A stretch of 64,000 bases of DNA from Escherichia phage S143_2. The stretch is taken from the sequence record MZ189261.1; one strand, given 5' to 3'. The notes beneath the pieces were generated by a model. That model saw nothing but the letters and a program-made list of their open reading frames with translations, ran no database searches and had not been told where the DNA came from. Made by a program: the position numbers and the translations under genes. Below, piece by piece: positions 25,799 to 38,658 of the stretch (position 1 is the stretch's first letter; the number at the start of each line of letters is the position of its first letter).

Positions 25799-26380
25799 TT
25801 ATAACAACCCTGTCAAATCATTCCAATGCTTCCGGCATAATGACACATATCTATCAGTATCACCAATTTCAATTTGACTGCCATCTGTAATTGGAAGTCC
25901 GTCTTCCGTGACTCTAGCTACCATTGTGGCCTTTTTACCACAATGACAGACACCTTTAAGTTCAACAAGCTTATCGGCAATAGCCATTAATGCTTGAGAA
26001 CCTTCAAATAGATTACCTTTAAAATCTGTTCGTAGTCCATATGCCATTACCGGCACATTGTATACGTCAACAATACGACTAAGTTGATACACCTTTTCAG
26101 TAGTTAAGAATTGAGCTTCGTCAACAAATACACAATGAATATCCTTTTGTGCTGCAGCCCATTTATAGAATTCAAAGATATCCATGTCTTTTGTAATTAT
26201 ATTGGCGTCCTGACGAATACCAATACGAGAGACTATTTCACCTTTTGAATCGCGAGTATCAATAGCCGGTTTAAGAACTAATACACCCATGCCACGTTCT
26301 TTATAGTTATGAGCGGCAGTAAGTAATGAAGCAGACTTACCAGCGTTCATAGCGGCATATGTAAAAATTAAACTAGCCAT
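25799..26380 (-). CDS. tk: thymidine kinase
   Basis: 193 aa; P-loop NAGKSASLL; C-terminal Zn cluster CHCG...C; T4 Tk same length. Confidence 0.9.
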   Translation of the reverse strand: MASLIFTYAAMNAGKSASLLTAAHNYKERGMGVLVLKPAIDTRDSKGEIVSRIGIRQDANIITKDMDIFEFYKWAAAQKDIHCVFVDEAQFLTTEKVYQLSRIVDVYNVPVMAYGLRTDFKGNLFEGSQALMAIADKLVELKGVCHCGKKATMVARVTEDGLPITDGSQIEIGDTDRYVSLCRKHWNDLTGLL

Positions 26381-26570
26381 AAGAGTCCTTAGTTAAATTT
26401 TCTAAATATGTTTCTAAATCATTTTCAGCTTTATCGATAGATTTTACTAATTCGTAGTATGTTTCAGCATCTCCATAATCCGAAGCCAATTCAAAAGATA
26501 AATCTCGTTCTAAACTAATAATTTCGCTGATTAAAAATCGTATTTCATTCTTTTGTTCGCGAGTAATCAT
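26373..26570 (-). CDS. hypothetical protein
   Basis: 65-aa ORF. Confidence 0.4.
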   Translation of the reverse strand: MITREQKNEIRFLISEIISLERDLSFELASDYGDAETYYELVKSIDKAENDLETYLENLTKDSYG

Positions 26571-26773
26571 AAGGAATTTATATAATCAATAAGTTCTTGT
26601 TCTTTATCGTCGAAATCTTTACACAGTTCTTCGTATTCGTCGGTATTAAAAGGACCGCATTCATCGCAAACTTTTTCCAATTCACTATTTTTATCCATAA
26701 CTTCGTGAATAAGAGAAAATAGTATGTCTTTTTGTTCTTTACTTAAACTCATAACCATGTAACCTTTAAGCAA
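26567..26773 (-). CDS. hypothetical acidic protein
   Basis: 68-aa ORF. Confidence 0.4.
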   Translation of the reverse strand: MLKGYMVMSLSKEQKDILFSLIHEVMDKNSELEKVCDECGPFNTDEYEELCKDFDDKEQELIDYINSL

Positions 26774-35440: not shown

Positions 35441-35746
35441 TTATTTTCCTCGACATTCTTTAATGAAATTTTCTAGATTGGTAGATTCAATAGCTTTTTT
35501 ACGAGCTTCTGCGTGTTCTTCTTCAGACAATTTACATTTATAATTGACCCAGACATTATGGTCGAAACTAGTCGTGGCATATAATAACAATGCTCCAACG
35601 AATAGCAAAAACGGTGATAAGAATACGAAACCAGGAACACCATCCATATCGTAGGCCTTTTGTAATACTGCAACAGAAAGAGCTGCGTAAAAAGGTGATG
35701 CAAATATTGTTAAAAGACCGATTCGGTTGGTTTCTGTTAATTTCAT
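35441..35746 (-). CDS. membrane protein with C-terminal ENFIKECR motif
   Basis: 101 aa; two TM helices; C-terminus ...NLENFIKECRGK. Confidence 0.5.
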   Translation of the reverse strand: MKLTETNRIGLLTIFASPFYAALSVAVLQKAYDMDGVPGFVFLSPFLLFVGALLLYATTSFDHNVWVNYKCKLSEEEHAEARKKAIESTNLENFIKECRGK

Positions 35747-35816: not shown

Positions 35817-36773
35817 TTATTTGAAAGGTTTTACCATATGGAAATTTTGTTTGAAACGTTTGACGTAATCATCATGTCCTAAGCTTTGGTACATACTTAC
35901 TACTTTGCTGTAGTTTTCCCAGGCATACTCACGGAACCAACCAGAGGTGATGCTTGTACAGACTTTTTCCAATGCCATCATAAAACTGGCTTCAGGGTTA
36001 ATTTTAAAGTCATTAGGAATTTGAGAACGTTCTAATGCTAGTACACATGATTCTTCGTATACACCGGCCAATTTGACCATTTCTGGTAACGATTCAAACT
36101 TCTCGCGTGAGGTCATGACTTCAGAACCGTCTTTCATATAAAATGTATACGCTGGACGGTCTGTTAGTGCAATGGCTTCATGAATAGTATCATGGTCATA
36201 CGTATAGATGTCATCTTTAAAGAACGCACTTTTAGAAGTGTCAAGAACTGGGTGAGCATAGTTCAAGGTTTCTTTCTGGCGTTTCAGCATAATTTCAGTA
36301 AGTTCATCGTTCAGTGTAACACCTTTACCACGAAGATACTGAATATGGTTCATAGTCTTTAAAAAGAATGGATTATTTTTCTTGAAACGATGAGACAACT
36401 TAATTGCAAGACATATCTCAGGAGTTGCCCAGTAAAACCCGTTCAAACGGTCTTTAGTCAAATTTTTCTTGGCGTATTTTAAAAGGTCATAAGAAGACGT
36501 GAAATCTTCAGGAGTGAGTTCACCTACTAATTCACGGACATTAGTGATTGCCGGAACAATATATGCTTCAAAATGAGTTTCGCGTCCATTATGGAAGCAT
36601 TTGAAAACTTGGACATCAGGGTTATCTTGATGAACATATACACCCATCATTTGATTTTTGAATGCATTCCAAGAACCTTGGTCTGCAATAAAGTCCCAGT
36701 CACTATTTTTGATAGCGTTAGAATCAATAAGACCATGATAGTGAAGTGCACGAGAACCAATAACTAACATCAT
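35817..36773 (-). CDS. nucleotidyltransferase-fold protein (second copy)
   Basis: 318 aa; N-terminal GSRALHYHGLIDSNAIKNSDWDF (G[SG]...DxD). Confidence 0.45.
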   Translation of the reverse strand: MMLVIGSRALHYHGLIDSNAIKNSDWDFIADQGSWNAFKNQMMGVYVHQDNPDVQVFKCFHNGRETHFEAYIVPAITNVRELVGELTPEDFTSSYDLLKYAKKNLTKDRLNGFYWATPEICLAIKLSHRFKKNNPFFLKTMNHIQYLRGKGVTLNDELTEIMLKRQKETLNYAHPVLDTSKSAFFKDDIYTYDHDTIHEAIALTDRPAYTFYMKDGSEVMTSREKFESLPEMVKLAGVYEESCVLALERSQIPNDFKINPEASFMMALEKVCTSITSGWFREYAWENYSKVVSMYQSLGHDDYVKRFKQNFHMVKPFK

Positions 36774-36801
36774 AATATTTTCCTCGGATTAATTCATTAA
36801 C

Positions 36802-37053
36802 TTAAATTTCACGACATGCGATATCATATTCATCCCAGAGGTCATCGTGTGAAGCCTCTACCAATGGAACGATTGTACCATTTATGTCTTCATTATAAGG
36901 GCAAATTGTACAGTGCGCATCTTCGAATCGGATACCTTTGTGTTCAGATTTTTTATAACGCATATCGAATATCTTTGCAAATTTTTCACGAGTAATGGTT
37001 TTACCAACCACTTTGGTTCCGATACTTTCGTAATAAATCATTGTGGACTCCAT
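36802..37053 (-). CDS. hypothetical protein
   Basis: 83-aa ORF. Confidence 0.4.
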   Translation of the reverse strand: MESTMIYYESIGTKVVGKTITREKFAKIFDMRYKKSEHKGIRFEDAHCTICPYNEDINGTIVPLVEASHDDLWDEYDIACREI

Positions 37054-37057
37054 TTAA

Positions 37058-37099
37058 TTTGATAGGACTACTATAACATAGCCCTATCTTGTTGTAAAC
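37058..37099 (-). promoter_or_regulatory. early promoter plus stem-loop module (family C)
   Basis: minus strand GTTTAC-aacaagaTAGGGCTATgtTATAGTAGTCCTATCAAAT. Confidence 0.5.
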
Positions 37100-37103
37100 T
37101 GTT

Positions 37104-37301
37104 TTAGCAAGAATAACTAGACGATACCCAGCCTTGAACAGTGATACTATTGTGGGATAATGAGATCGCGTCCTGGAGATTCAGACCTGCGTTATCTTCA
37201 ATCCATAACGTAACTTCTTCGCGTTCTTCTGTTGCAATTTGGAACAGGTTTTCCAGAGCAGCTACTGCCGTACGTACAGCACAATCTAATTCACGAGACA
37301 T
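37104..37301 (-). CDS. small protein ending W-V-SSSYSC (paralog C)
   Basis: 65 aa; C-terminus QGWVSSSYSC. Confidence 0.5.
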   Translation of the reverse strand: MSRELDCAVRTAVAALENLFQIATEEREEVTLWIEDNAGLNLQDAISLSHNSITVQGWVSSSYSC

Positions 37302-37310
37302 ATGGTTTCC

Positions 37311-37583
37311 TTAGCAAGTGTGAGAAGATGCGATCCAACCACCAGTTTCGAGGCTTAGGTTGTAGTCGTATTGGTAAACGTCGGCCCATTCAGCATAGCC
37401 GTTTTTTGTACAACGTTCAAGGTCGGCTTTAAGCTGTCCGGGTGAATGATATGTTCCACCCATACCATAAGCTGGATACAAGTCGAATGTTGTGTTTTGT
37501 TTATCAGCAATTTCTTTGGCAGCCTCAATAGCTGCATAGATTTTTGCTACAGCTTCAGCCAATTCGGTTTGTTCTTTAGACAT
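37311..37583 (-). CDS. small protein ending W-I-ASSHTC (paralog B)
   Basis: 90 aa; shares N-terminal helix and YG.G.TY core with 37593..37898. Confidence 0.5.
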   Translation of the reverse strand: MSKEQTELAEAVAKIYAAIEAAKEIADKQNTTFDLYPAYGMGGTYHSPGQLKADLERCTKNGYAEWADVYQYDYNLSLETGGWIASSHTC

Positions 37584-37592
37584 AGTGATTCC

Positions 37593-37898
37593 TTAGCACA
37601 ACGCAGAAGACGAAACCCAAGCACCTTCAGTAATAACGTAACCGTTACCTTCACGCTTAACATCGCCACCATTATTTTCAATTTCATCTTTCATCCACTG
37701 GGATACGATTTCACCCTTAGGATAATAAGTACGACCGCTACCATAATCACCTACAGAAAATGATACGGCATATTGGTCTGCGATCTTTGTTGCTTCTTCT
37801 TCGATACGTTCAGCTTGATTCAGAAGTTTATAAATTGCGTCTGAAGCGGATTTGGCATCATTAAACTCTGGTACTTTAATTTCAATAATCTTACTCAT
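37593..37898 (-). CDS. small protein ending W-V-SSSALC (paralog A)
   Basis: 101 aa; C-terminus EGAWVSSSALC. Confidence 0.5.
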   Translation of the reverse strand: MSKIIEIKVPEFNDAKSASDAIYKLLNQAERIEEEATKIADQYAVSFSVGDYGSGRTYYPKGEIVSQWMKDEIENNGGDVKREGNGYVITEGAWVSSSALC

Positions 37899-38254
37899 TT
37901 TCTACATTCCTTAATAAAGTTTTCGATTGTTTCATTTTCACGTCTAGCTAGGAGTTCATTATAACTAATCATTTGAGAAGCGTAAACCTTTTTATTTTTC
38001 TTGTTATGGTTTATAAAGTCGTAGTAAAAATAGACTACAGTACAAAAGGATGCGATGGATGCAAAGGCTTGGGTATACCGTAAGTCCTGCCATTGGTCTG
38101 TGAATCCACCAGTGTTCCCTATAAATCCTAACACAACGCCGTCAATAAGAAATCCAACTAATCCAAAGGCAAATCCCATGCCAATACTCATAATAAAAAT
38201 TAGAATGTTCTCACCAAGAGAAGGCCATACGGTTAAGAGTTGAGGCTTTTGCAT
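37895..38254 (-). CDS. membrane protein with C-terminal ENFIKECR motif
   Basis: 119 aa; multiple TM helices; C-terminus ...TIENFIKECRK. Confidence 0.5.
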   Translation of the reverse strand: MQKPQLLTVWPSLGENILIFIMSIGMGFAFGLVGFLIDGVVLGFIGNTGGFTDQWQDLRYTQAFASIASFCTVVYFYYDFINHNKKNKKVYASQMISYNELLARRENETIENFIKECRK

Positions 38255-38658
38255 CTTATTTCCTTAACGAATTCCATAGCTTCTTCATATTCATACTTTT
38301 TAACAGCTTCATCATACTGAGCTTGGGCTTTTGCGCACTGAACTTTCCATTCTCTTAATCGGGCTCTGTGATGACGGCCTTGGTGCCAATATCCTGCCCA
38401 ATTAATAGGCATTAATAAAAACGGTACAATAAGTGGTGCGACGAACATTAATGAAAACGCTGCATCAGACGATATAACTTTATTGGAATCTAAAACAGCT
38501 CCTATAATCATAAAGATTAAAAACGCTAAAGCTAAAATAGGGCCAAATAGTACTTCATTTGGGATTAATTTACGCTTGTATTCATACGCCCAGGGCTTAC
38601 TTGGCATGTATAGGGTTGGCTTTGACATATTCTCTACATTCCATAATAAATTGCTCAA
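38233..38658 (-). CDS. membrane protein with variant C-terminal motif (EFVKEIRC)
   Basis: 141 aa; two TM helices. Confidence 0.5.
   Translation of the reverse strand: MSNLLWNVENMSKPTLYMPSKPWAYEYKRKLIPNEVLFGPILALAFLIFMIIGAVLDSNKVISSDAAFSLMFVAPLIVPFLLMPINWAGYWHQGRHHRARLREWKVQCAKAQAQYDEAVKKYEYEEAMEFVKEIRCKSLNS

Follow-up and report, generated by a model that had tools for sequence, protein, structure and literature searches.

Small Cys-tailed proteins of large lytic phages and their linkage to a putative nucleotidyltransferase-like enzyme

Enzymes of the nucleotidyltransferase fold can act on a small dedicated protein partner: in MntA-HepT (MNT-HEPN, type VII) and in GlnD-PII the enzyme AMPylates or UMPylates an invariant residue of the partner, this acceptor being a Tyr in a loop or active-site motif and the partners being HEPN RNases or PII signal proteins. 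A last-residue Cys can also serve as a chemical handle, as in HypE of [NiFe]-hydrogenase maturation, a PurM-type ATPase of ~330 aa that ends in PRIC; once a step that depends on ATP has taken place, the thiol of this Cys bears an activated group. In arrays for ribosomally synthesised and post-translationally modified peptides (RiPPs), paralogous small genes precede one modifying enzyme, and the motif of the aminovinyl-cysteine (AviCys) ring, made on substrates of LanD/EpiD, is an S-x-x-C at the very terminus with its carboxylate free. Similar in layout to the locus that we describe here are MenA1/MenT1 and AbiEi/AbiEii, where a small-protein gene lies upstream of a bi-lobed enzyme of ~200-300 aa (PMC3985639; PMC10435456). 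Our locus lies in a stretch of 64,000 nucleotides from Escherichia phage S143_2 (sequence record MZ189261.1; the whole stretch is called the window below) and consists of three adjacent small open reading frames (ORFs), p1, p2 and p3, whose products all end in Trp-x-Ser-Ser-x-x-Cys or a close form of it with Cys as the last residue, together with a nearby gene for a two-domain enzyme. Under either of the two leading explanations discussed below, the module would be of a known kind, a nucleotidyltransferase-like enzyme with a small dedicated partner, and its form would be new in being phage-borne, in having arrays of partners and in the invariant Cys C-terminus. In the literature we found nothing on either family, on the terminal motif, on the linkage or on any experiment with them, and to our knowledge no described system has a Trp-x-Ser-Ser-Ser-x-x-Cys C-terminus.

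Our analysis indicates that the trio is best explained as belonging to a conserved two-component module found in large lytic phages, of which it would form the small-protein side. In this module between one and six genes, all in one direction, would encode small acidic proteins ending in W-x-[S/A/P]-S-S-x-x-Cys-COOH, and a single gene for a DUF7277 + DUF7275 enzyme of ~300 aa would follow. The window comes from a Mosigvirus, a T4-type coliphage of the RB69/JS09 kind, and the genes in question lie on its minus strand. The protein p1 (37593-37898; 101 aa; RB69ORF139c type; pI 4.6) combines an N-terminal helix with a YGSGRTYYP hairpin and ends in the tail GAWVSSSALC; p2 (37311-37583; 90 aa; RB69ORF137c type) has a YGMGGTY hairpin and the tail GGWIASSHTC; p3 (37104-37301; 65 aa; RB69ORF136c type) is without the YGxGxTY hairpin and ends in QGWVSSSYSC. 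Their tail motifs, W-V-S-S-S-A-L-C, W-I-A-S-S-H-T-C and W-V-S-S-S-Y-S-C, occupy 37596-37619, 37314-37337 and 37107-37130 respectively; the p1 tail is encoded by TGG GTT TCG TCT TCT GCG TTG TGC, then TAA, and in p3 the third Ser is encoded by AGT. All three fit the definition that we use for the family, a W-x-[S/A/P]-S-S-x-x-C motif whose Cys ends the protein. An initial annotation, made from the sequence alone, had described this trio with the same positions, lengths and tails and with a Y-G-x-G-x-T-Y core in two of its members (YGSGRTY in p1, YGMGGTY in p2), and all of this stands. What it missed is the linkage to the partner enzyme (35817-36773, minus strand; 318 aa; RB69ORF134c type; phrog_2141; Pfam DUF7277 and DUF7275 with E of 1e-78 and 1e-28), which lies 331 nt beyond p3. 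This linkage is the most informative feature of the locus.

In related loci from other T4-like genera, the array is invariably followed by a protein of ~310 aa. We tested the linkage both ways on IMG/VR contigs. When loci were found through the enzyme, with identities down to 38% and contigs of 350-390 kb included, 73 of 80 had at least one Cys-tailed ORF detected by the family hidden Markov model (HMM) upstream in the same orientation; among the seven misses, divergent tails account for five (..SRYTSSC, ..SSWVQSSC, ..NWDSSTC, ..WSSSSAHC and ..DWDSSSANC), one has no upstream flank and in one no such ORF is visible. When loci were found instead through the YGMGGTY motif of the small proteins, the enzyme lay downstream in 35 of 37 (E <= 1e-72) and the other two end at the contig edge after the array, that is, it is present in 35/35 informative loci. 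Of the 257 small ORFs in 116 loci, 256 precede the enzyme and run in its direction, the number of Cys-tailed copies per locus being one in 34, two in 49, three in 9, four in 23 and six in 1. The pair is found across many Straboviridae genera, in a different neighbourhood in Aeromonas phiAS4 (between the nrdD and nrdC genes), and also in an Ackermannviridae phage of Ralstonia, in Pseudomonas Otagovirus and in Providencia PSTCR6, where the enzyme gene spans the record origin. Across 43 diverse loci there is no third conserved gene family. The linkage of array and enzyme is thus near-obligate both ways and across unrelated phage lineages, and the module is essentially confined to phages: the enzyme family occurs in 733 phage records and on 5 contigs among 185,579 species genomes, all five from metagenome bins.

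The largest array, on IMG/VR contig 3300044693_000036 (L081, 413-1898 and 3116-3418), comprises five Cys-tailed ORFs ahead of the enzyme, which overlap or adjoin one another, and one behind it, the sole downstream copy among the 257.

Within the window the terminal motif is specific to the trio. A six-frame scan of all 64 kb gives six occurrences of W-x-[SA]-S-S, of which only those in p1, p2 and p3 are followed by x-x-C-stop, and these three are the only ORFs above 60 aa with a terminal Cys. The initial annotation had proposed a search for the motif in other phages, where it is indeed widespread. A family profile run against 1.84 billion representative proteins (E <= 1e-3) matched 126 clusters at 50% identity, nearly all of 65-140 aa and nearly all with matches that reach the last residue; two giant proteins, P0062 and P0068, were rejected as members, their family-profile matches being sums of weak repeat matches. 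Among 122 representatives, each less than 50% identical to the others, 115 end in Cys and 81 have no second Cys, and in every one of the 115 Cys-terminal ones W(-8), S(-5) and S(-4) are invariant while position -6 is S, A or P. The loci that we fetched hold 191 distinct copies; the tail is canonical in 141 of them, and in 185 the Cys is either the last residue or, as in 3 of these 185, is followed by one to three more. The family spreads from Enterobacteria to Ralstonia, Pseudomonas, Aeromonas and jumbo-phage contigs, its members are acidic (median pI 4.5, net charge -8), and the tail is kept through divergence to below 30% identity. Judged from these alignments, no other part of this highly divergent family is conserved as well as the tail. 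Moreover, the conservation acts on the protein and not on the DNA, since the codons and stops vary synonymously: in 128 distinct tails all six Ser codons are used at S(-5) and S(-4), with AGY in 21 and 37 tails respectively, the Cys codon is TGC 80 times and TGT 48 times, and each of the three stop codons is found.

How closely are the three proteins related to one another? Pairwise BLASTP gives E of 2e-4 for p1/p2, over 54 residues that include the YG(S/M)G(R/G)TY core and the tail, 1e-3 for p1/p3 and 5e-4 for p2/p3, so that similarity beyond chance, on which the initial annotation had made its proposal depend, is present. Both p1 and p2 match phrog_899 (E 1.3e-22 and 1.9e-18), the aligned part being only the C-terminal positions 134-221 of this 221-position profile, and p3 matches a separate family, phrog_4882 (E 7.7e-37). 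In HHalign the p3-type profile aligns with p1/p2-type profiles at 93.7% probability (E 1.9e-7, 62 co-linear columns), and the probability falls to 0.9% once the last 10 residues are cut. Because the signal vanishes with these residues, common descent of the p3 body is not demonstrated; of the paralogy claimed in the initial annotation, the part concerning p1 and p2 is clear, while kinship of p3 does not extend demonstrably beyond the tail. From these profiles, p3 demonstrably resembles p1 and p2 in its tail, in its place within the array and in its layout, which suggests that the tail is the functional unit. It also seems to behave as a portable one, given that p3 shares the tail only and that internal copies exist: some members carry a second W-x-S-S-x-C motif inside an acidic linker.

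Minority tails include W-x-x-S-S-C. A divergent subfamily, mostly missed or weakly detected by the family HMM, combines an internal W-x-S-S-x-C-Y-G-E with a terminal W-x-x-S-S-C, without the two-residue spacer (L008 2791-3024, L012 2740-3057, L038 3700-3951, L076 3357-3674 and L047 3537-3956); this subfamily shows that the tail motif can duplicate and that its spacing is not fixed.

AlphaFold models the small proteins with good confidence, with a predicted local distance difference test (pLDDT) of 87.7 for p1 (13 sequences) and of 94.3 for p2 (123 sequences), the latter with a predicted template modelling score (pTM) of 0.82. The predicted fold has a long N-terminal helix, at residues 15-43 in p1 and 3-29 in p2, in agreement with the helical segment of the initial annotation, then a beta-hairpin with YGMGGTY, a variable insert, a Trp-bearing last strand and a short helical turn. 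According to these models the small proteins are compact domains of a helix plus a three-stranded sheet. In the p2 model the tail forms strand 81-85 and helical turn 86-89, the turn being the S-S-x-x ahead of the terminal Cys, and since AlphaFold packs it in this way the tail would be part of the folded domain rather than a floppy peptide. Library searches with the small proteins gave noise only in Pfam, NCBIfam and PADLOC; in the PDB, sequence-profile matches were to designed helical bundles only, which we discarded as explained by helix composition, and Foldseek with the p1 model found no match at E <= 0.001. A fold search of BFVD returned uncharacterised family members only. The beta-grasp fold and C-terminal Gly-Gly of ubiquitin-like or ThiS-MoaD sulfur-carrier proteins are absent from the small proteins.

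The N-terminal domain of the enzyme, DUF7277, bears IGSRAL...SDWDF, and its C-terminal domain, DUF7275, has the invariant motifs LKxSHR, YDHDxIH, VLALER and KVCTSITSGWFREYAWENY. Across 24 diverse enzymes, G6, S7, D25, D27, K125, H128, K139, T140, R165, H194, D195, H198, E240, E241, E248, R249, K270, S274, G278 and R281 are invariant, and G6, S7, A9, D25, D27, K125, H128 and K139 are kept even in four very distant relatives. The candidate for the third catalytic carboxylate of a pol-beta-type enzyme, E69, is invariant in eight close enzymes and belongs to a consensus IxExEIAW, but it is not invariant in the 24-member alignment, and the region around it is much shorter in distant relatives. The N-terminal consensus reads (I/V)GSxAL, 8-14 residues, R-x-P-x-D-x-D-(I/F), with K/N replacing the motif-II R in T4-like enzymes, the window protein included. 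The AbiEii pattern given by Dy et al. is hG[GS]x15DhD, and they regard its longer spacer and its motif-II Arg as specific to AbiEii/DUF1814 (PMC3985639); by inspection against this pattern the hG[GS]...DhD signature of the DNA-polymerase-beta (pol-beta) type is present in our enzyme family. The likeness to AbiEii/MenT extends to the longer spacer, to the Arg four residues ahead of the first Asp and to a conserved Lys flanked by hydrophobic residues in the helical lobe. Unlike MenT/AbiEii, however, the enzyme matches neither PF08843 (E <= 5) nor any PADLOC model (E <= 1), and motif IV of DUF1814 (+DxxD) is not evident on inspection of the consensus and invariant columns of the 24-member alignment; membership in DUF1814 is therefore not supported by the sequences. 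Two GenBank records, independently of each other, label homologues of the enzyme 'putative nucleotidyltransferase'.

What could such an enzyme do next to an array of Cys-tailed proteins? The reading that we favour, plausible but held tentatively, is that it has the small proteins as substrates of its own, with the tail as the acceptor site. The enzyme would then be a pol-beta-type nucleotidyltransferase whose G-S...R-x-x-x-D-x-D binds metal and nucleoside triphosphate, and the small proteins would be the dedicated protein on which it acts. The tail would offer two Ser hydroxyls, a Cys thiol and a free terminal carboxylate, and the enzyme would recognise it and modify it covalently, nucleotidylylating Ser or Cys, for instance, or adenylating the carboxylate at the end, while the variable bodies and acidic linkers of the paralogues would carry differing downstream activities early in infection. 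Several paralogues per enzyme fit one enzyme serving many substrates. The initial annotation had proposed a 'modified or metal-binding C-terminus', and the first half of this is indirectly backed by the invariance of the tail, its conservation at the protein level, its internal recurrence and the enzyme linkage; metal binding returns below within a rival explanation. A more specific form of the proposal, possible though somewhat on the unlikely side, is a new system of C-terminal tail modification in which a phage nucleotidyltransferase-like enzyme converts the Ser-Ser...Cys-COOH of acidic effectors, by nucleotidylylation, by carboxylate activation with cyclisation or through a thiol-linked adduct, and thereby switches on or targets these effectors during early infection.

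Several observations weigh against the substrate reading. In minority variants the spacing from S-S to Cys ranges over 0-3 residues, which argues against a chemistry that requires a fixed ring size, and as packed in the AlphaFold model of p2 the tail would be harder to reach than the loops that typically serve as acceptors. The gap between array and enzyme has a median of 346 nt over the 116 loci, exceeds 500 nt in 43 and is at most 100 nt in 29; it is often several hundred bases long with unrelated ORFs and promoter-like sites inside, and because it is so long and interrupted, co-expression of array and enzyme is not assured. Finally, the nucleotidyltransferase assignment comes from short motifs only, and profile searches of Pfam, NCBIfam, PADLOC and PDB sequences with the enzyme alignments A4, A6 and A7 (the last N-terminal) returned only DUF7275/DUF7277 and no nucleotidyltransferase.

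Three of the described systems, MntA-HepT, GlnD-PII and HypE, serve as precedents rather than as relatives of the module. MntA-HepT and GlnD-PII offer a precedent for the proposed mechanism, with the acceptor here being a Ser-Ser...Cys C-terminus instead; the small proteins have no similarity to HEPN RNases or PII, and the enzyme has no detectable sequence relation to MNT or GlnD. HypE resembles the tail in its invariant last-residue Cys and so provides a precedent for the chemical handle, but the ~90-aa acidic proteins share no sequence or fold similarity with it and have no HypF-like partner. Unlike RiPP arrays with AviCys, the C-terminal tail is here conserved and the N-terminal domain is, to go by its pLDDT of 94.3, stably folded, in place of a leader and a hypervariable core; moreover the surroundings of the 43 loci show no conserved dehydratase, flavin decarboxylase, protease or exporter, and the Ser-Cys spacing varies. 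In PHROG 899/4882 and DUF7277/DUF7275 the window proteins are plain members, and these entries carry no function.

In the main rival reading the module would be toxin-antitoxin-like or regulatory, with an AbiEii/MenT-like enzyme that acts on RNA, such as tRNA 3' ends, for host shut-off or repair, and with small proteins that serve it as stoichiometric inhibitors or specificity subunits instead of substrates. The acidic proteins would fill a positively charged nucleic-acid cleft, and the tail would plug the active site as a pseudo-substrate. The gene order, a small protein followed by an R-x-x-x-D-x-D enzyme of ~300 aa, does mirror MenA1 (68 aa)/MenT1 and AbiEi/AbiEii (PMC10435456; PMC3985639), the strong acidity of the small proteins is as expected of nucleic-acid mimics, and several phages have RNA ligase 2 or tRNA clusters in the neighbourhood of the module. 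We nevertheless regard this explanation as unlikely. Neither the AbiEii Pfam model nor the PADLOC library, which is expected to include AbiE, matches the enzyme, and +DxxD is not evident among its conserved motifs; the loose coupling of the genes departs from the tight bicistronic layout of type II/IV/VII toxin-antitoxin operons; and one to six divergent paralogues per enzyme with an invariant, nucleophile-rich tail would be unusual, as antitoxins normally co-vary with their toxin. Unlike MenA/AbiEi, none of which has such a Cys-terminal tail, the small proteins are borne by lytic phages and not by a cellular defence locus, and to lytic phages addiction logic does not apply.

Decidedly less probable is the explanation that the small proteins are effectors on host targets, be it as anti-defence decoys, as sponges or as binders of metals or cofactors, with hairpin and tail forming a ligand site and with an enzyme that serves their pathway, say by producing or taking away the ligand, but does not modify them. 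In the confidently predicted domain the conserved residues G40, G42, Y45, W83, S86, S87 and C90 come from the hairpin loop and the last strand and turn, which would fit a small pocket, but the p3 type and other short variants keep the tail without the Gly-rich hairpin, so that such a pocket is not universal. A Cys with a free carboxylate is a good metal ligand, and accessory regions commonly house phage counter-defence genes; the genes here do lie in an accessory region of small early genes of unknown function, with early/middle promoter-like sites upstream. However, no known sponge or anti-defence fold is matched in the PDB or BFVD, and a mere pathway link accounts less well for near-obligate adjacency than a physical relation of enzyme and partner. 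Scarcely credible, by comparison, is that the shared ending is a by-product of a nucleotide signal such as a ribosome-binding site or terminator, or that the ORFs are not genes. This idea draws on neighbouring ORFs that share an ..ENFIKECR(G)K ending through an embedded Shine-Dalgarno sequence and start, and on the TAAGGA that follows p1 and p2, yet it is effectively refuted by the synonymous variation of the tail (TCN/AGY switches, TGC/TGT, three stops); in addition, p3 and many orthologues keep the tail though no gene lies directly downstream, the family is widely conserved, the ratio of nonsynonymous to synonymous substitution rates (dN/dS) is 0.14-0.28, and the AlphaFold models are confident.

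Sequenced phages with the pair number in the hundreds; they are phages of Escherichia, Klebsiella, Enterobacter, Acinetobacter, Aeromonas, Pseudomonas and Ralstonia, many of them in development for therapy, and jumbo-phage contigs carry the pair as well. An invariant terminal Cys after Trp and Ser-Ser is a rare and chemically suggestive signature, and the enzyme linkage turns 'hypothetical protein' into a testable hypothesis of enzyme and partner. If the enzyme does modify the tail, the known protein modifications would gain a new C-terminal type with its own carrier-protein family, and phage effectors a new class; if the small proteins instead restrain a MenT-like enzyme, lytic phages would use toxin-antitoxin-type logic for host takeover or RNA repair.

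Copies of the types p1, p2 and p3, together with a fourth type that is absent from the window (..GFWFSSSMSC), follow a fixed order in Mosigvirus, Dhakavirus, Marfavirus and others, and since this order recurs across genera the array must be ancient, with members gained and lost. Against Dhakavirus, dN/dS is 0.14 for p1, 0.24 for p2, 0.28 for p3 and 0.08 for the enzyme, with dS saturated. By these ratios the trio is under purifying rather than diversifying selection, and the 'diversification under selection' suggested in the initial annotation does not hold as worded, the array being old and its type order the same across genera.

The junctions within the trio are short and alike. The p1/p2 junction GGAATCACT (37584-37592, minus strand) has 9 nt, in which TAA and GGA form the Shine-Dalgarno sequence of p2 with the frame kept, and the p2/p3 junction GGAAACCAT (37302-37310, minus strand) has 9 nt of the same build. 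Read-through to a polyprotein was considered and rejected: the single frame with ORFs a TAA and 9 nt apart reflects a duplicated TAAGGA-spacer-ATG ribosome-binding spacer, and other phages have overlapping, out-of-frame copies. A consensus scan finds a promoter-like TTTACG-17-TATAAT at 37958-37986 (minus strand), ~60 nt upstream of p1 and inside the e.3-like ORF, where the record of phage SA79RD has an annotated T4 middle-type promoter; directly after p3 lies TTTACA-17-TATAGT (37070-37098, minus strand). Both are consensus matches only, and the total of sites in the scan is no higher than in shuffles. These sites suggest pre-replicative expression of the trio, and, given the site after p3, the enzyme may be transcribed separately.

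In the window, the interval from p3 to the enzyme holds two promoter-like sites and an 83-aa ORF (36802-37053, minus strand; RB69ORF135c type; phrog_3723). This ORF is confined to close relatives, and in view of the lack of a third family in the 43 diverse loci it probably does not belong to the module.

Over 36800-38300 the window shares 99.4% identity with Escherichia phage HY126 and 98% with many further phages, and orthologues of p1 occur in 394 phage records. Related records place the trio between e.2-like and e.3-like genes and annotate p1, p2 and p3 as 'hypothetical protein', the annotators' similarity notes pointing to RB69ORF139c for p1, to ORF137c for the JS98 orthologue of p2 and to ORF136c for p3. 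In the records of HX01 (NC_018855.1) and IME540 (MT150133.1) the region of the p2-type ORF is called 'tail completion protein' or 'major capsid protein', and in those of F27 and JK36 the e.4-like neighbour is called 'sulfurtransferase'; judged by context, all three labels look like annotation errors. Elsewhere in the window a 70-aa ORF (26376-26585, minus strand) matches the family profile weakly (E 0.016, in the region ..ASDYGDAETYYE..); it has no Cys tail, and the match is probably due to chance.

Two membrane-like ORFs near the module end in ..ENFIKECRGK and ..ENFIKECRK (ORFs at 35441-35746, 37895-38254 and 38233-38658, minus strand). The codons AA(A/G)GAATGT(C/A)GA..AAA at the ends of the membrane-like ORFs hold the AAGGA Shine-Dalgarno sequence of the next gene; the ORF ending at 37895 overlaps the start of p1 by an ATGA stop/start, and the e.4-like ORF contains AAGGAAATAAGATG, which is the ribosome-binding site and start of the next ORF. 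Endings of the ENFIKECR(G)K type are by-products, since translation-initiation regions are embedded in them, an explanation that fails for the Cys tail.

Distant short relatives of the enzyme occur in Vibrio phage KVP40, Streptomyces phage Wakanda, Gordonia phage ClubL and roseophage DSS3_VP1. These distant relatives are without the otherwise invariant KVCTSITSGWFRE(Y/F)AWENY motif and also without Cys-tailed neighbours, a hint that the KVCTSITSGWFRE motif of the enzyme and the Cys tail go together. Acidic, aromatic-rich ORFs of ~100 aa adjoin the distant enzymes KVP40.0037, Wakanda gp195 and ClubL gp16, namely KVP40.0036 (L137 2360-2656), Wakanda gp196 (L135 3594-3893) and ClubL gp17 (L136 3600-3890). 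These ORFs have weak similarity to one another (BLASTP E 0.007 for KVP40/Wakanda) and are unrelated to the Cys-tailed family (HHalign 0.5%); to go by their sequences, they may be an alternative partner family. RNA ligase 2 follows the enzyme directly in Ralstonia phage RSP15 (L006 5803-6825) and in DSS3_VP1 (L138 265-1810) precedes it by ~1 kb, beside a phosphoesterase, and tRNA clusters lie 1.5-5 kb from the module in three other phages (L001 11748-11999; L004 1-349; L136 4847-6112); such neighbours could reflect a function of the enzyme at RNA ends or a mere clustering in accessory regions.

Two further ideas about the enzyme were dropped. The 'H...HD' of DUF7275 as a sign of an HD phosphohydrolase was a guess only, with no HD link in PDB, Pfam or NCBIfam searches, and a Cys-Cys relay through Cys272 of the enzyme was abandoned because this residue, present in 120 of 124 enzymes, is missing from four that still have Cys-tailed partners. 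At enzyme residues ~270-288 (window 35950-36010) an invariant C-T-S-I-T-S-G-W, read backwards, resembles a W-x-S-S-x-x-x-C tail, which could be a coincidence or could reflect antiparallel strand pairing of the two motifs.

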